Virus record (IMG/VR): IMGVR_UViG_3300045988_150439
DNA from: a virus
Taxonomy: Duplodnaviria > Heunggongvirae > Uroviricota > Caudoviricetes
Length of the DNA stretch: 64,000 nucleotides
Strand: one strand, 5' to 3'
Made by a program: the position numbers and the translations under genes. Each line of letters begins with the position of its first letter. Position 1 is the first letter of the stretch. Shown in pieces: positions 3,519 to 60,118 of the stretch. Under the pieces are notes generated by a model. It was not told where the DNA came from, searched no databases, and saw only the letters and a program-made list of their open reading frames with translations.

Positions 3519-3836
3519 GTATTCCTCCTGATGGCCGTGATATAGGAAGGCCATCAATCTCCTCTGTTCAAACTGAGTTTTCGACTCAAAAATTACTTTA
3601 AAAGGCTATAGCCCATTACGTGTGCATTATCAAATTGTGTACGGCATATCACCGTACTTGTAATATAGAGGTCATTGTTACTTTTTTCAACAGGCAAATA
3701 CAAGCAATGATTGCCAATTGTTAACCACAACCTACCATTTTACCTTTACACCGCAGCCGTAGGCATTTAGGCTATATCACATATAAGAAAACAAGTTGTT
3801 TCAGACGATAATTATATACGCAAAGGGAACTCTCCA

Positions 3837-4505
3837 ATGACCAAGATCTTTGTGGTTGGCGGCACAAAGGGCGGGCCTGGCAAATCCACCGTTGCCCAGC
3901 AAATTGCCGTTTGCCTGAAAGTCAAAAAGAAGAAGAAGGTTTATATCACTGATATAGATATTCAGCGCACGACAACAAGCTGGTGTGAAGACCGTCGACA
4001 GAACGAAGATCTTGAGCTGATTCCTTTTGCATACGTTCAGGATGACATCATTAAGCACCTAAAATCGCTTCAGGGTAGAGCTGAGTTTGTAGTGGTAGAT
4101 GCTGGTGGCTTCGACTCCGAAATTCAGCGACAAGCGATGCTGATGGCTGACGTTATCATTATCCCGCTGCGTCCTAAGCGTCGTGATTTGAAATCTTTAC
4201 GTGACATCGATCCTATTATCGACAATGTTCGCAATGTAAACGATAAAGTGAAGGTCCGCGCGGTCATGAACCAGTGCCCGGCTTTGCCATCACAAGTGTC
4301 TCGCATTCTGGCGGCTAAAGAGATTGTTGAGACGTTTGGAATCGAGTCTGCGCCAGTCAATCTATATAACCGCAACGTCTATGATGATGCGGAAGAGTCT
4401 GGTCGTTCTATCTTTGAAATGACCGGTAGCGAGCGCGACAAAAAGGCGGAAGCCGAGTTTGAAGAATTTGTAGATTATCTGTTGAGTCTGGAGGAAGAAG
4501 AATAA
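3837..4505 (+). CDS. parA: ParA/Soj-type partition ATPase
   Basis: Deviant Walker A GGTKGGPGKST at N-terminus; 222 aa; stop overlaps start of downstream gene (TAATG). Confidence 0.8.
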   Translation: MTKIFVVGGTKGGPGKSTVAQQIAVCLKVKKKKKVYITDIDIQRTTTSWCEDRRQNEDLELIPFAYVQDDIIKHLKSLQGRAEFVVVDAGGFDSEIQRQAMLMADVIIIPLRPKRRDLKSLRDIDPIIDNVRNVNDKVKVRAVMNQCPALPSQVSRILAAKEIVETFGIESAPVNLYNRNVYDDAEESGRSIFEMTGSERDKKAEAEFEEFVDYLLSLEEEE

Positions 4506-4864
4506 TGTCCATGAAAATGGGTGACCTAGCAAAGCGCAAAGAGCCTGATGCACCGGCTAAGAACACAACTCCTTTGCGCCAACCAGTCAGACCACAGGGA
4601 CGCCCGACTCGTGGCAAAGAGAAAATTAAAAGCCGCACAATGTCACTGGAAGACGAATACTTCGAACTGCTGGAGATGATGAAGTTCATCCCTCGCTTCG
4701 AGAAGTTCACTCGTTCTGACGTGATTCGAGCAGCCATTTTCCATCTGGCAGAGAAGTCACCGCAGGAAATCGAGGACATCGTGAAGCTTAACGAGGCGAT
4801 CACAGCTGCCGACGTTACGATGCGTACCGATGAAATTAAACGAGAGTTGATGAAGAAAGGTTGA
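4505..4864 (+). CDS. small partition DNA-binding protein (ParG-like ribbon-helix-helix)
   Basis: 119 aa; basic N-terminus then RHH-like segment RTMSLEDEYFELLEMM...RSDVIRAAI; translationally coupled to parA. Confidence 0.5.
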   Translation: MSMKMGDLAKRKEPDAPAKNTTPLRQPVRPQGRPTRGKEKIKSRTMSLEDEYFELLEMMKFIPRFEKFTRSDVIRAAIFHLAEKSPQEIEDIVKLNEAITAADVTMRTDEIKRELMKKG

Positions 4865-4867
4865 TTA

Positions 4868-4890
4868 TATTGGGCGTTTGTTACGCCCAA
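4868..4890. repeat. perfect inverted repeat ttgggcgt / acgcccaa (hairpin or protein-binding site)
   Basis: Read directly; lies between the par operon and the AT-rich KAP gene. Confidence 0.4.
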
Positions 4891-4915
4891 TATATGAATT
4901 AAAGGATTGATACTA

Positions 4916-6610
4916 ATGGAATCGATAGAATCATTTCTAAAAAATTTTCTAGTTTCAGATCATCGGGTTGCCGTCATAAAAGGAGATTGGGGCGTTGGTA
5001 AAACTCATTATTGGAATAGTTTTTATACTAAGCATTCTGAAGGATTAGATTTTAATGCATATTCGTATGTTTCTTTGTTTGGGGTTAACTCTATTGGTGA
5101 TATTAAAAAAACTCTTTATCATTGTGCCACACCAATTAATGAAAAGAAATATAAAGAACTAATTTTATCTGAAACGGATCGAACTATGATTCGTTATAGA
5201 AATGGGTTTTGGGGATGGTTGAAATACAACTCCTTGTCAAAATTTTTAATACATTTCGGAAAGAACGATTTTTTTGGGTTCAAAACAGATAACCTGCTGT
5301 CATCTCTTGAGTATAAATTTGTTAATAATTATTTGGTTTGTATTGATGATGTTGAAAGAAAAGGTAATTCGCTAGAAGTTAAAGAAATTATGGGGGTAAT
5401 TGATGAATTAGCAAGAAGAAAAGGTTGCAAAGTTGTTCTAATTTTAAATGAAGATAATTTACATGATGAAACTGCAAAAAAACAGTTTTTAGAGTACAGA
5501 GAAAAAGTAATTGATGTCGAAATAAAATACGATCCTACGCCTGAGAAGAACTTACGTAAAGTTTTTTATGAAACTGATTCTGATTTTCTTTTGTTAAAAG
5601 TCTTAGCAAATGACTTAGGCATTAAAAATATCCGTATATTAAATAAAATAAAAACATCTCTGGTTAATCTTAGGAATGAGCTAAGCTTGGCAGAGGATAA
5701 GGTTAGAGAAAGTTTTATCAATAGATTGGTTCTGTTTTCAGTGGTTTACTATTCTGGTGTTCCAGGTGTTGATTATGCCTTGTTTAAAGAATCAATTAAA
5801 AACATACATGTATTTGATTACATGTTAGATGATAAAAAGGATGATTCTGTATATTCATTTATTAATAGTCTTGATATTATTTATGAACGAGCGGAAATTG
5901 CTTTCGATGATGACATAGATTTTTATCTCAAGAATGGTTATCTTTCTACTGAAAGCAATATTCGAGGTATAATAGAAGAAAAAAATAAACAATATAAAGA
6001 ACACAAGGCTTTATGTGAGGTTAACAATGTTTGGGATATTTTTAGTGACTCATTCAAGGACAATGAATCTGAGTTTATTTCTAAGATAAAATGTGTAATT
6101 AACGACAATCTTTCACACATACCTGTTGCTCACTTCATAGGCTTGATTGATATCTTAAATAGATTGTTGATTGATTGTGATAGTTATATAGAGGCATATG
6201 CAGATGCCTTTGTTAGCCAAGATGATGCTTATACTGCTTTTCGGAATTTGTATGTAGAGATATTTGGTAACGAAAAGTTAGGTCTGCTAATTCAAAAAAA
6301 ATTGATGGATAAGAAGCCTGAAGAGACTAATTTAGAGAATGTTTTATACAAAATAATTGAAGGCAAATTTAATCATAGTGACATAGCATATCTTAACAGT
6401 TTCTCTGAAGATGATTATTTAAAGTGGATATTATCCCGCAATCAGGATGCTTTGGATTTAGTGAGAAAGGGGTTGCTCAGATTCAAAAGTATGCAAGAAC
6501 TAACAGAAGAACAGCAAAAAATCACGAATAAAGCAATAGGTGCATTAACGAAACTGGCCTCTAGATCAAGTCTTAACAAACTACGTGTGAGCAGATTGCT
6601 TAATAATTAA
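4916..6610 (+). CDS. KAP-family P-loop NTPase
   Basis: ORF 4907..6610; ATG 4916 follows AAAGGA. Walker A GDWGVGKTHYW near N-terminus, DDVER Walker B-like; coding region clearly AT-rich relative to neighbours. Confidence 0.6.
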   Translation: MESIESFLKNFLVSDHRVAVIKGDWGVGKTHYWNSFYTKHSEGLDFNAYSYVSLFGVNSIGDIKKTLYHCATPINEKKYKELILSETDRTMIRYRNGFWGWLKYNSLSKFLIHFGKNDFFGFKTDNLLSSLEYKFVNNYLVCIDDVERKGNSLEVKEIMGVIDELARRKGCKVVLILNEDNLHDETAKKQFLEYREKVIDVEIKYDPTPEKNLRKVFYETDSDFLLLKVLANDLGIKNIRILNKIKTSLVNLRNELSLAEDKVRESFINRLVLFSVVYYSGVPGVDYALFKESIKNIHVFDYMLDDKKDDSVYSFINSLDIIYERAEIAFDDDIDFYLKNGYLSTESNIRGIIEEKNKQYKEHKALCEVNNVWDIFSDSFKDNESEFISKIKCVINDNLSHIPVAHFIGLIDILNRLLIDCDSYIEAYADAFVSQDDAYTAFRNLYVEIFGNEKLGLLIQKKLMDKKPEETNLENVLYKIIEGKFNHSDIAYLNSFSEDDYLKWILSRNQDALDLVRKGLLRFKSMQELTEEQQKITNKAIGALTKLASRSSLNKLRVSRLLNN

Positions 6611-6620
6611 GTATTCATGA

Positions 6621-6671
6621 CCTGTTTCTGTATATAAATAATAAGTAACTTATTAAATATACGGAAGCAGG
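6621..6671 (+). repeat. AT-loop hairpin element copy 1 (probable terminator)
   Basis: 15-bp stem cctgtttctgtatat / atatacggaagcagg with AT-rich loop; near-identical element at 56885..56941. Confidence 0.5.
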
Positions 6672-6788
6672 TCTTTCAAAAGATACCCACCAGAACAACT
6701 CCCTTCCGTTTCCACTTCCAAAAACTGCCACCAATCGCTATCATCAGCTCATTGTGATAAGTAAGTAACTACCTACCAGGTGAGCCAC

Positions 6789-7529
6789 ATGAGCCAAATC
6801 TTTTTCGACACCATCGACAACGACCAGTACGACTTCATGACAGAGTGGAATACCGCTGTTATGGATAAGTGGGTTGCTGAAAACATTGGTTTGTCGCGCT
6901 GCAAAGACGAGGCTGAACTCTTCGATACGAAGTGGTTTGATTACCGCGACATGCATCCTCTTATGGCCACCTGTCTGTTTACGGAGGCATACAAACGTCA
7001 GTACTCAAATATCATGCTGACGCACGGTCGCGAACACTTTGAAACAGCTCCGTTCACCACCGGGTTAAAACGCCTGCCTTATCAGGAGTTGTCGACTGCC
7101 AATAAAACGTCGCTATGGAAAGCACGCCAGTTTGCTGACCGCTATTGCTGCTCATACGACTACTTTATCTCCACCGTTCTTTCCGCAGCTGCACGACGTC
7201 TGTGGGACAAGCTGCCTCGCCCACAGCATTTGTGGCAGCCAGAACTGATTGAGATATTTGAAGAGAAATTAGCCAGACGCGCAACAACCCGTCTGGATGA
7301 CTCTCTGGTTAGCTTTAAGCATATAGGAGACATGCAGTTCAACCCGATCCAGGAAAGCTATTTTGAGTGGATTCTGGAGCGTTTACGCACCATCCCCCGC
7401 AGCAAGCGCATACGCGCAATTTTCTCCGCTATCTGGCTAATGGAAATCGTTCCAGAGCGCCTTATTTCCGCCCACTTTCCAGAAGAACTGGAAGAAGCAC
7501 GGCGGTTTATTGATCCCCTATCCAATTAA
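6789..7529 (+). CDS. hypothetical protein
   Basis: ORF 6780..7529; ATG 6789 follows AGGTGA; no motif recognised. Confidence 0.5.
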   Translation: MSQIFFDTIDNDQYDFMTEWNTAVMDKWVAENIGLSRCKDEAELFDTKWFDYRDMHPLMATCLFTEAYKRQYSNIMLTHGREHFETAPFTTGLKRLPYQELSTANKTSLWKARQFADRYCCSYDYFISTVLSAAARRLWDKLPRPQHLWQPELIEIFEEKLARRATTRLDDSLVSFKHIGDMQFNPIQESYFEWILERLRTIPRSKRIRAIFSAIWLMEIVPERLISAHFPEELEEARRFIDPLSN

Positions 7530-7572
7530 CTAATACTAGAAAACAATTTGTTTAAAAAACAAAGGAAAGCAC

Positions 7573-14474: not shown

Positions 14475-14549
14475 GATGGTGTAGCTCAGCGGTAGAGCAG
14501 TTGGCTGTTAACCAACTGGTCGGTGGTTCGAATCCACCCACCATCGCCA
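14475..14549 (+). tRNA. tRNA-Asn (anticodon GTT)
   Basis: Cloverleaf by eye: acceptor gatggtg/caccatc, D-arm gctc..gagc, anticodon stem gttgg/ccaac loop ctGTTaa, T-arm ggtgg-ttcgaat-ccacc, encoded CCA. Confidence 0.85.
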
Positions 14550-14551
14550 AT

Positions 14552-14627
14552 GCCGGTTTAGCTCAGTTGGTAGAGCACCTGCCTTGTAAGCAGGATGTCA
14601 GCGGTTCGATCCCGTTAACCGGCACCA
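14552..14627 (+). tRNA. tRNA-Thr (anticodon TGT)
   Basis: Acceptor gccggtt/aaccggc, anticodon stem cctgc/gcagg loop ctTGTaa, T-loop ttcgatc, encoded CCA. Confidence 0.85.
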
Positions 14628-15212: not shown

Positions 15213-16424
15213 TCAAAAAAGTTTTATAAATTCATAATTCTGGTCAATTAAGGATTCAATACACACCATGCAAAAATCTACATCGTTAAAATCAGGTGTG
15301 TAATATTCATCCTCATAACATTCATTTAGACCTTCAATCAATTTTTCTTTAAAAACTCCCCACGTTTCAATATGAACCATTTCCATATAAGGCGCATGTG
15401 TATGTACTTGCAATACATCCCAGGTGTCTATAACCTCGATCCGCGGCTTGCAATTAATTTTTTCTAAATATGCCCTCCCAGAATTGTAAATTTTCGACAT
15501 TGATGCCCCAAAACCTGATGGTTGGTAATGAGTGTAAATGTCATAAATTTTTTGTCCTATTCTAGGGAGTTGAGAAGCATTGGATATTTGTGGCGAATGA
15601 AAGTATCGCTCTATGGAAGAAAACGCAGAAACATTAACTAGAGTAATCGTATATGGTGCTAAAGTTCTCTCGTTCAAATTTCTACATAAAATAGCAAACC
15701 CATGGCTATTAGTCTTTTCACCGTCTGAGGACATTTTTGCCATGCTGGCTTTAATAACATTCAATTTCGAATGTAAACGAGAAGTGGAAGTCGGTTGATT
15801 ATACATTTCATCATCATACAAACATATATGAAACCCGCCAAGATGACGAAATGAGAACTTGAGTGCTTCTTCCGCAATAACTAATTTATTAATATCTAAA
15901 GGAGTAAGTGATACGTTACCTTGTAAATCATAGCAAGGTTCTAAACATAGAAAGTTTTTCTTCTGCCACACAATCATATTAAAAATAAAGTGTCTAACCA
16001 AAGGTGGCCAGTCAGGTGATATAAGTACATTGGTAATATCTCCATCAGACAAGTATGACAAGTAACTTTTTAGTTCCGCAGCATATGCCACTAGCTCAGT
16101 TCCAGCTTCCCTTGTTGGTGTTGAAAAATTTTTTAACTCAATAAGAACTAAGGATTCATTCTCTGTTGAATAAGCAACGACATCAGGTCTTAATATCTCA
16201 GATTTTGTTGCTGAGATATTTTCATCATCTGTCATTAAATGTAACAATGTTATATTCTTTAAACAAAACTGATAACTCTCCTTAATTTTTTTCTCTTCGG
16301 GTCTTTTCGGATTAAATTCATTTAATTTATCAATATTGATGATTGAATTATATAATCCATCTTGATCAGATAATTTGTCAATTATCCAATTTTGCATTTC
16401 CTTTTCGCTTAAAAATATTGACAC
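15213..16424 (-). CDS. 403-aa protein with PD-(D/E)xK-like nuclease motif; distal gene of AT-rich two-gene cassette (AbiGii position)
   Basis: GTG start; PDVVAY...SLVLIELK resembles a D..ExK restriction-endonuclease-fold motif; very AT-rich; 26 nt from upstream gene. Confidence 0.45.
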   Translation of the reverse strand: MSIFLSEKEMQNWIIDKLSDQDGLYNSIINIDKLNEFNPKRPEEKKIKESYQFCLKNITLLHLMTDDENISATKSEILRPDVVAYSTENESLVLIELKNFSTPTREAGTELVAYAAELKSYLSYLSDGDITNVLISPDWPPLVRHFIFNMIVWQKKNFLCLEPCYDLQGNVSLTPLDINKLVIAEEALKFSFRHLGGFHICLYDDEMYNQPTSTSRLHSKLNVIKASMAKMSSDGEKTNSHGFAILCRNLNERTLAPYTITLVNVSAFSSIERYFHSPQISNASQLPRIGQKIYDIYTHYQPSGFGASMSKIYNSGRAYLEKINCKPRIEVIDTWDVLQVHTHAPYMEMVHIETWGVFKEKLIEGLNECYEDEYYTPDFNDVDFCMVCIESLIDQNYEFIKLF

Positions 16425-16450
16425 TAATTAGGCTCCCGTTAAACCAAAAA

Positions 16451-17272
16451 TTAAAAATCTTGCTTTACTTTATCCATAGTCAGAATTTTGCTAATAATTG
16501 AAGATTCAAATCCATCTAAACCTGAGAGAAAGTTAATTAGCTTTTGGATATGTTGTTCTTTAGGTATAAGTATATATTTTATATCATTGAACTCAAAATC
16601 AATGCCAAACTTTGAAAATTTTGAGCTAATTTTTGCTTTGTCATCAGAAGTGATAACACGCTCCAAACTCAGACTAGGCCATAAATCACCAATAAAAGGA
16701 GCTGGCACATAACGCCACTCTTTCTCGTCTGCATATATATAATTCTCTATTGTTTTATTATCTTTTCGCTCTAGCTTGCCTCTGTAATTTTTCATATAAC
16801 GCAGTAAATTATATAGATCAGAATATTCTGCTTTCAATTTCTCAAACTCTATTCTGTTTTTGGTATCTAAATTTCCTCTAGCCTTCCAAAGCGGCACCAA
16901 CTTTTTTTTAATAAGTCGAATTCTGGCATTGTATTTAGAAAATATTTCACTGCTCTTATTCATATATAGAACTGGGTGTAGACCTTTCTTTTCCGCCCAA
17001 GACTTAGTTAGCCCAAGACCGAATTCCCCATATTTTCCGCTATGATCTCTGATTTGTGATAGTTTTATGTCACAAAACGATACCATTGGTACTGCAAACC
17101 TCCTGCGTCCCCCGACTCCTCTTATTTCCTCGCGAGCAAGAAATGGTTTAAAATATTTCTCAGCCAATATGCTATAGAAAGCATCTTCGTTTTTTGTAAA
17201 ATGAAACAACGTGGTTGGATGAAGACTATAAACAGATTCAACATTCGCATCAGGATTTTCAAGGATAGTCAT
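16451..17272 (-). CDS. AbiGi-like protein (candidate abortive-infection component)
   Basis: ORF 16451..17317; probable ATG 17272 follows AAGGTG. N-terminal LFHFTKNEDAFYSIL...PMVSFCDIKL...YGEFGLGL pattern resembles what I recall of AbiGi proteins; AT-rich. Confidence 0.4.
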   Translation of the reverse strand: MTILENPDANVESVYSLHPTTLFHFTKNEDAFYSILAEKYFKPFLAREEIRGVGGRRRFAVPMVSFCDIKLSQIRDHSGKYGEFGLGLTKSWAEKKGLHPVLYMNKSSEIFSKYNARIRLIKKKLVPLWKARGNLDTKNRIEFEKLKAEYSDLYNLLRYMKNYRGKLERKDNKTIENYIYADEKEWRYVPAPFIGDLWPSLSLERVITSDDKAKISSKFSKFGIDFEFNDIKYILIPKEQHIQKLINFLSGLDGFESSIISKILTMDKVKQDF

Positions 17273-17561
17273 TTTACACCTTGTGGAAAGCCAGTTTAGT
17301 TCTGTAAATAGTATCACACGACAGGCGGCTATTCTTCTATCAATAAAGGATAGGTAAGCACTTACTTTTTACGCGCGTTAATTGTATAGTTCTTTCGGAT
17401 ACTCACTTGAAAGGACTCAATATGGGAAATAAATGTAAACATGCGCGTCGCGCATCTCGTCAGGTGCAGAAGTCAAATCCATACATTCACGAGCACTACC
17501 ACCTCAGCTCTTTCACTAACCGCTACACGTTCCCCAGCGAAGCGCATAACGAGGCAAGGCA

Positions 17562-19104: not shown

Positions 19105-20208
19105 ATGAAAAATAGCTTTGACAGAGCACGCGCAGCGGAGAACACCTCAAAAGAGGCGATTGAGTATCTCGAAAGAGCATCTCAAATGCAGGCCGTTATG
19201 ATCTCGCAGGTTAGCAATGACATGAGATTCTCAGACGCATTCATGTTATTCACTCGCTTATCTCTGCTAATAACAAGACGTCGGCCAGAGATCGCTGTTC
19301 ACTGTATTTTGATACATGTTTTGCCGCACATTGCTGATGTAAAAGTAAGTGACATTAATAGGTTCATGGTGAACCAACTGGTCAACCCACTAATACTGGA
19401 TGGCAAAATTGTTATGGGCCGCCGCGTTTTCTCTCTGATGAAGCAGTTCCTTAGCTGGTGCGCCTTCCAGGGGATGATAGACGTGTCACCGTTAAACGAT
19501 ATGTCACTTAACAAAGTTGCCGGTGGCGCAAAGCCCACACCTCGCGAGCGGAAGCTGACCGACGCAGAGGTATGGGTGTTCTGGAATATATGGGACTACT
19601 TCAATGTGTGTGCTGGTACAAAATGGGCGGCAAGGCTATGTCTTGTATCCGCAAGACGACCTGATGAAGTACTGCGGGCTAAAAAAAGTGAGTTCAATCT
19701 TAAGCGTGGGGTTTGGAATCAAGGCAAAAGAAACAAGTCAGCACGTGAGCATTCGCTGCCTTTAAGCACATTAATGCGCACATGCATTGAAGAGTTGTTC
19801 GAATACGGTAAAGATAGCCAGTGGCTCGTTCCTTCGAATAAAAAAATCGGGAAAGACCTTCCTATGTCTAAAGTGGCAATAGCCCAGGCATTACGTCGTA
19901 TTCTGGAACGACCAGAACTGATGGAGCTTGAGCCATTTACACCCCGAGATTTGCGCCGTACTGCGCGTAGTTACTTCCCAGCATTAGGCATAAGCCAGGA
20001 GGTATCACGTAAAATCATGAACCACAGTCTTGAGGGGATAGATCGGGTCTACGACCGGCACGATTATATGGACGAGATGCGAGACGCCTTAGAAAGTTTC
20101 TCGACGTACATCGCATCAATCGTAGAGCAACCGGATTTAGACGAAATTGACCACAAATTTAAGGGAGATCGTCTATCAACAGAGCTTATTCGTGTAAATT
20201 TTTCATAG
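19105..20208 (+). CDS. tyrosine site-specific recombinase
   Basis: 367 aa; C-terminal catalytic region with RDLRRTARS, HSLEG, and Tyr motif VYDRHDY. Confidence 0.7.
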   Translation: MKNSFDRARAAENTSKEAIEYLERASQMQAVMISQVSNDMRFSDAFMLFTRLSLLITRRRPEIAVHCILIHVLPHIADVKVSDINRFMVNQLVNPLILDGKIVMGRRVFSLMKQFLSWCAFQGMIDVSPLNDMSLNKVAGGAKPTPRERKLTDAEVWVFWNIWDYFNVCAGTKWAARLCLVSARRPDEVLRAKKSEFNLKRGVWNQGKRNKSAREHSLPLSTLMRTCIEELFEYGKDSQWLVPSNKKIGKDLPMSKVAIAQALRRILERPELMELEPFTPRDLRRTARSYFPALGISQEVSRKIMNHSLEGIDRVYDRHDYMDEMRDALESFSTYIASIVEQPDLDEIDHKFKGDRLSTELIRVNFS

Positions 20209-21053: not shown

Positions 21054-21151
21054 CCCCTCTTCTCCCTGCGCGAATGGCTTAGTTCCCTGTTCGCGCAGTG
21101 CTACATTAAACAAACTAGTAAATAATTTGTTTTCATAACAAAGGATTAGCC

Positions 21152-28322: not shown

Positions 28323-28593
28323 AGAATTATGGCGCTTGTTGAGGAAGTCACTCCTCTTACGCACTTTGTTTTGCCATGCCGGCAGTTAGCTTCTGCCTTT
28401 GACTATTCATGCGGCAACCCCGCATTTCGCCACAATGGGCAATTCACTTTTATGGAATAAACTGGCCGTTGTGTCGATTTAATTAGCATGGCCTTACCAT
28501 GCTAATTTATTCAACTTGTAAAATCCTACAAATCTATCCACTCAGGCTTACACCGTCTTCGTTATTGTAGAAATGAGGATCATCAGCGTTGAA

Positions 28594-28809
28594 TCAGCTT
28601 AGAGCAACGACATTTGCTGCTGCTGGGCCTTTAGCCCCATTCTCGATAGAGAATTCGACCTGCTGGCCTTCTTCCAAAGTGCGGAAATTATTACTCTGAA
28701 TTGCCGAAAAATGTACAAAAACATCTTTACTGCCATCAGCAGGAGAAATAAAGCCAAAGCCTTTATCAGAGTTAAACCATTTTACTAAACCAGTCATTTT
28801 ATTAGACAT
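28594..28809 (-). CDS. cold-shock protein (CspA family)
   Basis: ORF 28594..28905; probable ATG 28809 follows AAGGTAG. About 71 aa with RNP1 KGFGFI and RNP2-like VFVHF. Confidence 0.8.
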
Positions 28810-29138
28810 AGATACTACCTTCTTAATTTTGTGAGCCACATAGTGCGGCGAGAATTTGATCTGTATAGATTGGGACTTACTTAGGCACTTAAGGAGGAGA
28901 CTCACGAAGAAGGGAAATCAGAAGATAACACTGAACTGAGACTGCTTTACTAAAACTGCTTACATAAGGTCTGTCTTGCAAACCAACGATGCTATTAACG
29001 CATACCCCTTCTTTTCATGCAACCTTTATTTTTCAAAGATAACTAATTTTTGTCACCATTGGTTTAGTAAACGTTAACGAACCAGACGATGCCAGACACC
29101 TTTACAGAGAACAGATGCCCGCCAATTGGCGGGCATCA

Positions 29139-56267: not shown

Positions 56268-56861
56268 ATGATTGCAGCCGAAAAAATCAAACAGCGAAAG
56301 CGCGACAACTCTCTTCGTGACCTCTGGAGAACACCTGATTGGCTGTTTTCTGCCATTCAACGTTATCTTGGAGTGACATTTGATGTTGACGTTGCCTGCA
56401 ACAAGGACAACGCAAAGCTGCCTAATTTCATAGGCATTGAGCGTGATGCTTTGAAATCTGAATGGGGACAGCCAGGTACAATTGCCTTCCTCAATCCACC
56501 CTACTCCAAAATCTCCCCCTGGATTGATGCTGCTATACGTGAGCAGGCTCGCGGAGTTACAACAGTGATGCTAATTCCTCAATCCCTCGATACAAAGTGG
56601 TATGAGCGTGCAACAGAGTATGCGAATGAGACGATTATTCTGTCTGGTGGCCGCGTAGCGTTTGTCGAGCCTGACGTCAATTTGGGTCAGGTAGAAGTAA
56701 ACATCAACCCCGGTGGCAGTATGCTCGTTGTTTTTCGAGGATTCTGTCAGGACGCTGGGCACTCTATAAGCAAGATCCCTTTGGACGTCATGAAAAGTCT
56801 GGGAGGGTATAATCCTGCGAATGTGATCAGGAAAAAAAGACCATCAAAGAAGGCTGCTTAG
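56268..56861 (+). CDS. DNA N6-adenine methyltransferase (phage Dam-like)
   Basis: 197 aa; FLNPPYSKI catalytic motif. Confidence 0.65.
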   Translation: MIAAEKIKQRKRDNSLRDLWRTPDWLFSAIQRYLGVTFDVDVACNKDNAKLPNFIGIERDALKSEWGQPGTIAFLNPPYSKISPWIDAAIREQARGVTTVMLIPQSLDTKWYERATEYANETIILSGGRVAFVEPDVNLGQVEVNINPGGSMLVVFRGFCQDAGHSISKIPLDVMKSLGGYNPANVIRKKRPSKKAA

Positions 56862-56884
56862 TTTGCTCTGGCGTCTGTAATTAG

Positions 56885-56941
56885 CCTGCTTCTGTATATA
56901 TATAAATAACTACATATTAATTATTAATATACGGAAGCAGG
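56885..56941 (+). repeat. AT-loop hairpin element copy 2
   Basis: Stem cctgcttctgtatat / atatacggaagcagg; matches element at 6621..6671. Confidence 0.5.
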
Positions 56942-57024
56942 CTGTTTTGTATCAGAGACTCCAGACCTGAACATCACTACAGAATCCACTAGAACCCCTT
57001 CCCAGACGCTTTAAAATCGATTTT

Positions 57025-57279
57025 ATGAACCACTTTAAGGAAACCAACATGTCATACCCGACTAATGTCGTTGCGCTCGTAGAGAGCGATTTTCTGGCTA
57101 AGGCTCGTGAAATGATGAAAGATCGCGAGCAGGCTTTCAACTTGTACGAATGGGCAATTAAGTGCTTGCATCTTGGGGAGCATCGCGAACTTGTTGAACA
57201 GCTTTTAGGTGAGTTGATCAACGAGGTGTTTGCCTTGAATGTTCAACTACATGGTCGAGAAAATAATCAATCGAAATGA
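57025..57279 (+). CDS. hypothetical protein (84 aa)
   Basis: ORF only; helical. Confidence 0.35.
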   Translation: MNHFKETNMSYPTNVVALVESDFLAKAREMMKDREQAFNLYEWAIKCLHLGEHRELVEQLLGELINEVFALNVQLHGRENNQSK

Positions 57280-59302: not shown

Positions 59303-59395
59303 CGGTTGTTAGTGCATATGCATTGACCGTCTTTTCGTAAGCAATTCATGTAACTAGAAAACAACTTGTTTTAACAAATAATAAAAGGAAAGCAC

Positions 59396-60010: not shown

Positions 60011-60118
60011 TGACCGAAATAGAGAGTTTGCACCTTTACGTTTAGCTTGCTCCCCTTTTATGCCACATCACAATAAAGCCAATAAGAAAACAACTTGTTT
60101 AAGCATTAGGAAAAACAC

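Follow-up and report, generated by a model that had tools for sequence, protein, structure and literature searches.

Two hairpins in a 64-kb viral DNA window (the whole stretch analyzed, 64,000 nucleotides) belong to a family of three palindromes found at operon boundaries and specific to SSU5-like phage-plasmids. The elements are non-random and universal in the SSU5-like family. Termination of, or insulation against, read-through is the main function that we favor for the two window hairpins, with a confidence that is about even. The window itself is part of an E. coli SSU5-like phage-plasmid with 99.9% identity to plasmid p20170902CC-1 (NZ_AP025215.1), and its close kin include the phages Cyrano, CMS-2020a, and SSU5. 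Phage-plasmids of the SSU5 type are frequent in clinical Enterobacteriaceae, and they carry defense and resistance cargo. The lytic genes of a phage-plasmid (~80 kb) must be kept silent during expression of the plasmid genes of the same strand, by a mechanism that is poorly understood, and three boundary elements that are fixed in position and conserved in sequence provide a concrete, testable handle on such insulation.

Structure of the Palindromes

A preliminary description of the window had reported two hairpins, and both their coordinates and the arms quoted for them were confirmed. The hairpin at site A (positions 6621–6671, + strand) is 51 nt long, with the arms CCTGTTTCTGTATAT and ATATACGGAAGCAGG on either side of a 21-nt AT-rich, self-complementary center, and that at site B (56885–56941, + strand) is 57 nt long, with the arms CCTGCTTCTGTATAT and ATATACGGAAGCAGG separated by 27 nt. 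At 0–1 mismatch, the 15-nt arm matched only these four arm positions in the 64 kb, none of the shuffled sequences reached the real match count at ≤3 mismatches, and no further element resembling hairpins A and B was found within the 64-kb window in arm searches that allowed up to three mismatches. Folded as + strand RNA, hairpins A and B had energies of −28.7 kcal/mol (z = −8.0 vs. shuffled sequences) and −29.9 kcal/mol (z = −6.0 vs. shuffled sequences), respectively. The center that had been described as an AT-rich loop is indeed AT-rich but is itself mostly self-complementary, so that each element is a near-palindrome of 24–27 bp with a loop of only 3–7 nt; the 27-nt arms of hairpin B are 85% complementary. 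The basal stem (CCTGC/GCAGG) is GC-rich, as in the stable stem-loop of an intrinsic terminator, and the dyad symmetry is kept up to the center, where one base is free (AAGT-N-ACTT).

The similarity between sites A and B reaches past the hairpins into a U-rich tail and inverted CCAGA(C/A)C boxes that lie 12–28 nt out on both sides. In the outward direction from either arm, the consensus begins with GCAGG-(y)TCT.AA- and continues to a CCCAGA(C/A)C box, which appears as GGTCTGG on the left and as CCAGACC on the right. The U-rich tails occupy positions 6672–6679 at site A (TCTTTCAA, 4 T in 8; TCTTTTT in SSU5, TCTTTTTC) and 56942–56949 at site B (CTGTTTTG, 5 T in 8; CTTTTTAA in SSU5 and Klebsiella), both on the + strand. 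The right outer box of site A, CCAGAAC (6690–6696, + strand), belongs to this half-element consensus; the left box GGTCTGG is absent there because the KAP cassette abuts the hairpin. Site B has a left outer box, TCTGG (56867–56871, + strand), and a right one, CCAGACC (56961–56967, + strand). Further downstream, the two sites share sequence that ends in CCAG(T/A)CGCT beside a −10-like hexamer.

Two promoter assignments were considered and rejected. The CCAGAC box is not a general promoter motif, as it showed no genome-wide enrichment and occurs only beside the palindromes. The octamer of a T4-type late promoter (TATAAATA) is present in both window copies of the palindrome but not in those of Cyrano and PO552, and its chance occurrence is expected where DNA is AT-rich. 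We also noticed CTATACGTGAGCAGG, which agrees with the right arm at 12 of 15 positions, at 56533–56547 within the Dam coding sequence, 340 nt 5′ of hairpin B.

Genomic Positions and Distribution

Hairpins A and B start 10 and 23 nt, respectively, after stop codons and lie between co-directional genes. Before hairpin A are parA (3837–4505), a parB-like gene (4505–4864), and the gene of a KAP-family P-loop NTPase (4907–6610, + strand; Pfam KAP_NTPase, 24.8 bits; PADLOC candidate PDC-S49, E = 7e-22), whose stop codon is the one 10 nt 5′ of the hairpin. The operon 3′ of it begins with the conserved phrog_2500 gene (6780–7529, + strand) and continues with genes of a DnaB-like helicase, a primase, and a ligase. 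Hairpin B follows the gene of a Dam-type N6-adenine methyltransferase (56268–56861, + strand; Pfam Dam, 130.8 bits), which ends 23 nt before it, and precedes an 84-aa gene (57025–57279) and then that of RNase H. Both genes 5′ of the hairpins had been described as cargo-like, a label that is right for the KAP NTPase, found in 23 of 384 related plasmids, but not for Dam, a core gene at the site B position in Escherichia, Salmonella, Klebsiella, Enterobacter, Moellerella, and Pectobacterium relatives.

The element had been thought to be present twice, which is correct for the window; the complete plasmid NZ_AP025215.1, however, contains exactly three copies. The third, at site C, lies outside the window at 64097–64151 of the plasmid (14097–14151 of locus L127), with an 88-aa gene on one side and the small and large terminase genes on the other, and the three sites split the circle into blocks of ~30, 32, and 48 kb. 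A search for further copies in the genome and its relatives, which the preliminary description had proposed, revealed these three fixed contexts family-wide. At least 120 loci were obtained with a pattern scan of IMG/VR, and a total of 127 sites were classed when earlier loci and the window were included. Among the matches listed from these sources, 46 sites were assigned to A, 35 to B, and 37 to C, and the other 9 were curtailed or divergent; all classifiable IMG/VR copies among the matches listed had context A, B, or C. In 76 IMG/VR loci picked solely by the protein encoded downstream of site A, hairpin A was located 5′ of the phrog_2500 gene without exception (76/76), and its length ranged from 51 to 57 nt, chiefly through the number of TA repeats. 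The site A region was identified in 257 of 5,426 complete E. coli genomes, in every place plasmid-borne, and no chromosomal copy was found in any of the 5,426. Searching the whole window against Rfam at gathering thresholds gave no match to the palindromes, and the only matches of the two sites at E-values up to 10 fell below threshold and were chance similarities to long hairpins like those of microRNA precursors. No description of the palindromes was found among the papers searched on SSU5, pHCM2, and Cyrano.

Probable Termination and Insulation at the Operon Boundaries

The earlier suggestion of a terminator family is the best-supported function of the element in this lineage. In its favor are the proximity of the hairpins to stop codons, their U-rich tails, and a drop in expression in Cyrano; the forms that the arms take in distant lineages speak against it. 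In the SSU5 group, the coding strand has a U-rich tail at sites A and B, and no U-tract was found at site C or on the antisense sides. At site A, all four lineages examined have a T-rich run 3′ of the right arm. At this site, the coding strand gave the more stable RNA fold in every hairpin variant (14/14); at site B, the non-coding strand did so in 8 of 13, and site C favored neither strand. The strand bias of G·U pairs, which holds at site A alone, was accordingly discarded as proof of RNA function, and SSU5-type copies of site B have C·A and U·C mismatches on the coding strand. A consensus promoter and terminator scan flagged neither hairpin, because their stem and loop are larger than it allows and the tail at site A contains no more than 4 T in 8.

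The palindromes at sites A and B share several traits with intrinsic terminators, including bidirectional ones: the hairpin is stable, close to the preceding stop codon, and GC-rich at the base of its stem, the 5′ flank is rich in A (AGAA...TTCT), the 3′ tail is rich in U, and, in the per-gene Cyrano data, expression falls across site A. They differ from intrinsic terminators in that the stem is far longer (24–27 bp) and mostly AT, the U-tract is short (an intrinsic terminator would have about 5 or more U in 8), one stem sequence is used at three loci and changes in step with the lineage, and the arms are separated or solo in relatives.

The expression data come from RNA-seq of Cyrano in E. 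coli LF82, in which parA, the parB-like gene, and the cargo gene had values of log2 5.2–10.4, and the gene just 3′ of hairpin A had values of log2 2.3–4.2 (PMC9928086, S1 table). The per-gene drop across Cyrano site A was ~9-fold in normalized LB counts and >100-fold in other conditions (PMC9928086). At Cyrano site B, both flanks are silent in the lysogen and CYRAN_80, which follows the hairpin, reads the same as or slightly higher than the Dam gene before it, and at site C there is a 2–4 fold drop at low counts (PMC9928086). We infer that the hairpin itself causes the drop at site A and that the elements at sites B and C are active as well. In favor of termination, site B of the distant relative Klebsiella sp. 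PO552 p2 has, in place of the palindrome, a canonical terminator with a GC-rich stem and a T-run (AAAACGCGCCA...TGGCGCGTTTTCTTTT, −19.5 kcal/mol).

A putative sigma-70-like promoter of the replication operon, which the consensus scan did not flag, is located at 6716–6744 (+ strand; TTCCAA, 17 nt, TATCAT). The same relative position 3′ of site A is occupied by TTGATT, 17 nt, TATAAA in the Moellerella and Pectobacterium relatives. A candidate −10-like hexamer, TAAAAT (57012–57017, + strand), which lies after CCAGACGCT and 5′ of the 84-aa gene, emerged from the alignment of the A and B flanks.

In this lineage, each element pairs two ~22-bp motifs back to back in inverted orientation; the motif is GC-rich in its outer part (CCTGCTTCYG) and AT-rich in its inner one. 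We propose that RNA made across the motif pair forms a hairpin of 24–27 bp followed by a U-rich stretch, which would terminate or strongly attenuate read-through from the upstream unit, and a separate, putative promoter 45–75 nt 3′ of the hairpin would start the next unit. At site A, the element would in this way shield the lytic replication operon (helicase, primase) from the lysogen-expressed partition-plus-cargo operon, and owing to this insulation cargo genes could build up just 5′ of the hairpin without consequence. The same arrangement would explain a safe landing slot for candidate defense genes, which would be expressed in the lysogen with their transcription ended before the replication operon.

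Arms in Distant Lineages

Three distant syntenic lineages, in which the phrog_2500 protein is 48–54% identical to that of the window, were read whole; the SSU5 supercluster also has relatives in Acinetobacter and Aeromonas. The three lineages were reached via tblastn on plasmids; an alignment search with the divergent protein returned close relatives only. The arm is CCTGCTTCYGTATAT in the E. coli/SSU5 group, CCTAGCTCTGTATAT in PO552, CCTAGCTCCCATAGT in Moellerella, and CCGCGCTCYCATAAT in Pectobacterium, a graded series that varies in two modules of the arm (positions 3–6 and 9–12), and in all four lineages the lineage-specific change is present in every arm of a genome.

In addition to their sequence, the arrangement of the arms varies. 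PO552 p2 has three copies of a 57-nt element beginning with CCTAGCTCTGTATAT, one at site C and two, inverted, at site A (CP037443.1, locus L129, ~39.2–39.5 kb), where the ~190 bp that separate the two elements contain several CCCAGA boxes. As RNA, the 57-nt element folded no better than shuffled sequence, and Dam of PO552 p2 is located elsewhere in the genome, not at site B. Pectobacterium plasmid Drgb1 has the arms AATGCCGCGCTCYCATAAT and ATTATGGGAGCGCGGCATT as inverted pairs at sites A, B, and C, with spacers of ~105, 49, and 105 bp, and no occurrence of these arms was found beyond the three sites in the plasmid. In Moellerella plasmid pW18-2-b, the arm CCTAGCTCCCATAGTATTTA is paired at sites A, B, and C with spacers of ~75, 35, and 80 bp, and three solo arms are found in intergenic regions elsewhere. 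With respect to transcription, each solo arm has the "left-arm" orientation, and two are placed directly 3′ of ordinary terminators. One exact 16-nt arm was also noted inside nrdA of this plasmid. Scanning IMG/VR with a 14-mer of the Moellerella arm gave mostly chance matches and one relevant contig with the same paired and solo pattern. Over the lineages, the spacing between arms thus ranges from 0 to ~190 bp, and solo arms also occur. Within the SSU5 group, the variable arm positions ignore pairing, with T:G, T:A, C:G, and C:A all found at one position, and at another position a T-to-G variant breaks the pair on both strands.

Neither the separated and solo arms nor the arm changes that are shared lineage-wide are explained by a pure terminator. 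Concerted change of the arm sequences requires either a co-evolving sequence reader or repeated gene conversion. The pairing-blind variation of the arms, the pattern of strand stability, and the symmetry up to the dyad argue against a purely RNA-level constraint. It is likely, as far as the sequences allow a judgment, that the arm is also recognized by something lineage-specific.

Termination and sequence recognition may be combined. We tentatively suggest, as possible rather than probable, that the ~22-bp arm is the motif of a putative phage-plasmid factor, which would read it as DNA or as an RNA stem, and that the three pairs serve as switchable insulators. If so, the replication, middle, and late blocks would be walled off from neighboring transcription in the plasmid state, and on induction the factor would open the pairs, or load there, coordinately; motif and factor would co-evolve, so that each lineage would have its own arm. 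A factor that reads the arms would be a new regulatory component of the family, and the arms would be a convenient lineage marker too.

Alternative Functions of the Arms

The main alternative, though rather doubtful, is that the arms are primarily DNA sites for a putative lineage-specific phage-plasmid protein and that the hairpin is a by-product of back-to-back sites. The protein could be a stoperator-type repressor or roadblock, an activator 5′ of operon promoters, or a ParB/KorB-like silencer. Arms that differ by lineage and are uniform within a genome would be expected of such sites, although gene conversion could also yield the concerted changes. Inter-arm distances that vary so widely are also compatible with them, although inverted pairing at variable spacing suits a structure better than a dimeric protein. 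Solo arms of the Moellerella type, with their single orientation relative to transcription and, in two cases, their place right after ordinary terminators, point to DNA recognition, as do the arm variation that does not respect pairing and the symmetric palindrome with its free central base. Occlusion of a promoter in the simple sense is, however, unlikely, as the arms lie 45–130 bp 5′ of the candidate promoters.

Dispersed repressor sites are familiar from the C1 operators of phage-plasmid P1. The four-lineage arm series presents the one motif per genome, diverging between lineages, that characterizes a dispersed operator or stoperator. The stoperators of cluster A mycobacteriophages resemble the arms in that a temperate phage carries several intergenic copies of a lineage-specific motif, with an orientation bias of solo copies and divergence of the motif by lineage (PMC9283540, PMC6550527). 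Stoperators are asymmetric, 13 bp long, and found in tens of copies (PMC9283540, PMC6550527), unlike the arms, which are ~22 bp long, number 3–10 per genome, and are mainly inverted pairs. It should also be noted that a far more abundant palindrome, AAACAANTTGTTT, is already operator-like and common to two lineages whose arms differ, which stands against the arms as DNA sites. Specifically, the arms as the main repressor operator are weakened as a candidate by the sharing of this 13-bp palindrome between the E. coli type and PO552 despite their differing arms. The arms were likewise rejected as partition centromere, because the region 5′ of parA has the 13-bp palindrome and nothing arm-like.

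This perfect palindrome is found in the window at 3789–3801, 7541–7553, 59359–59371, and 60088–60100, and with 1 mismatch at 21120, 36623, and 48353. Many start codons have it 29–48 nt upstream. In the complete plasmid, 19 sites were counted at ≤1 mismatch, including 9 perfect ones vs. ~0.007 perfect sites expected; PO552 p2 has 18 sites, and hardly any are present in the Pectobacterium and Moellerella relatives. The palindrome resembles a dispersed operator and is a better operator candidate than the arms in this family. Two adjacent proteins with ParB_N domains are encoded outside the window (16001–17367 and 15339–16004 of L127, both on the − strand) together with an ABC-type ATPase; this group lies ~2 kb 5′ of site C and is conserved in all four lineages examined. 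The ParB_N proteins are possible readers of dispersed sites. By annotation, further candidates for binding the arms are an HTH repressor encoded beside the integrase gene, the 88-aa protein encoded 5′ of site C, and the parB-like protein.

The hairpin may also act as an RNA element for a phage RNA-binding factor or RNase III, that is, as a nut/boxB-like site, a regulated terminator, or a processing or stabilizing site, which we regard as unlikely. Such an element would permit coordinated read-through into three lytic blocks upon induction. The stems of ≥20 bp are long enough for RNase III processing of the T7 type, although the strand bias in stability is inconsistent, with the coding strand favored at site A only. 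In lambda, P22, and phi21, the boxB copies of nutL and nutR, which are read by N proteins, are alike within a genome and differ by lineage, and each is a 15-nt hairpin 3′ of an early promoter, beside boxA. By analogy, a multi-copy RNA hairpin that is uniform within a phage, different in related phages, and changes in step with the lineage could be of this kind. The palindrome hairpin, in contrast, is 51–57 nt long, no boxA or N-like or Q-like protein was recognized, there is no Rfam match, and the solo arms and 100-nt spacers of relatives fit an RNA element poorly. Between the site C palindrome and terS, we observed two copies of AAACAANTTGTTT, two AAACAARTTGKTT repeats, and a GC-rich, terminator-like hairpin (GAGCGC..GCGCTC) with a T-run. 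Antitermination could control the late operon with such a layout, which is in line with an RNA element.

That the element is chiefly a DNA structure is very unlikely. The AT-rich, perfectly palindromic center clamped by GC-rich ends could be an unwinding element or lytic origin, or a cruciform target of the plasmid's SbcCD-like nuclease, whose cut could start recombination-dependent replication. Site A lies directly 5′ of the helicase/primase operon, SbcC/SbcD-like, gp32-like, and UvsW-like proteins are encoded by the plasmid, and the circle is cut by the three sites into blocks of ~30, 32, and 48 kb. Against an origin, neither iterons nor an initiator were recognized; a cruciform would not be possible in relatives, where the arms are distant or solo, and structure alone cannot explain the sequence-specific concerted change.

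The Cargo Slot 5′ of Site A

Comparison of the gene content adjacent to the copies, as the preliminary description had recommended, showed that their positions are conserved, that the region upstream of site A is hypervariable, and that sites B and C are syntenic on both sides. The slot from the stop codon of the parB-like gene to hairpin A (4865–6620) falls into at least 20 classes of upstream sequence in 75 loci, one of which is empty. In this empty-slot locus (L132), the parB-like stop is followed by 8 nt, GGTCTGG, 15 nt, and the hairpin. In PADLOC, the KAP NTPase matched PDC-S49, and the DUF2971 proteins of Cyrano and SSU5 matched PDC-S31. The slot is likely a hotspot for single-gene defense candidates.

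These observations bear on a second proposal of the preliminary description, in which the hairpin would be a recombination site that marks module junctions, i.e., a site-specific recombination or cassette-integration site of the attC, lox, or dif kind. The sequence diversity of the slot and the position at which homology with most relatives stops, 0–10 nt from the left base of hairpin A (query 1714–1732, corresponding to 6613–6631 of the window), would agree with it. The proposal is nevertheless not supported, and we consider it extremely unlikely: variable DNA adjoins site A alone, synteny is kept on either side of B and C, and the junctions at site A differ by genome, the outer box being kept in SSU5 and the empty slot and lost in the window and Cyrano, unlike the fixed crossover of attC, lox, or dif sites. 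Moreover, the left edge of the slot is the parB-like stop codon, with no second copy of the element, exchange among the three sites would delete or invert essential blocks, and the sole integrase gene (19105–20208) is 12.4 kb from the nearest copy, at site A. Most simply, the slot can be read as a place where insertions are tolerated and whose cargo would be exchanged via conserved flanks. It would be tolerated because it is transcribed in the lysogen, yet terminated ahead of the replication operon.

PeSLs (promoter-early stem-loops), which are composite terminator/promoter cassettes, are numerous in T4-like phages, where they flank each variable gene, and recombination between copies shuffles the genes. 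The palindromes differ from them in having three copies at fixed core positions, of which one, at the right edge of the slot, lies beside variable genes, the other edge being a gene end; PeSL units are found on both sides of such genes. Like PeSLs, the palindromes are small, conserved units of stem-loop and putative promoter that are repeated in the genome, and one copy borders a hyperplastic region of swapped, unrelated genes (PMC2839356, PMC4122927). Where the KAP cassette has its left edge, immediately 3′ of the parB-like stop, we also noticed a small hairpin, ATATTGGGCG-TTTGTTA-CGCCCAATAT (4868–4895), and the same place in Cyrano has a different hairpin (AGAAGGCG..CGCCTTCT).

Repetitive Elements and Minor Observations

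REP/REPIN and ERIC sequences of enterobacteria are chromosomal and occur in hundreds of copies at non-orthologous sites. A functionless mobile or selfish repeat (MITE, REP/REPIN, or ERIC-like) deserves almost no credence here: although the elements are, like those repeats, extragenic imperfect palindromes at gene ends, with inverted doublets that can form hairpins and whose spaced forms recall REPINs (as in the two inverted 57-nt copies around ~190 bp at PO552 site A), 118 of the 127 sites among the matches listed sit in three orthologous contexts and the rest are curtailed or divergent, the many non-orthologous copies, including chromosomal ones, that a mobile repeat would leave were not found (0 in 5,426 complete E. 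coli genomes), no relevant transposase type is annotated, and the positions are held across lineages that are only ~48% identical in protein.

The sequence ATAAGTAAGTAACT lies at ~6748–6765, just ahead of the phrog_2500 gene start, and the center of the palindrome carries the related AAGTAACTT; ATAAGTAAGTAACT resembles AAGTAAGTGACTGGGG, which we take to be the core of the enterobacterial ERIC repeat. Elsewhere in the window, a full-length match to the cspA thermoregulator RNA (RF01766, 183.9 bits) is located 5′ of a plasmid-borne cold-shock gene (region 28569–28987, − strand), and two tRNA genes are found at 14475–14624 (+ strand).
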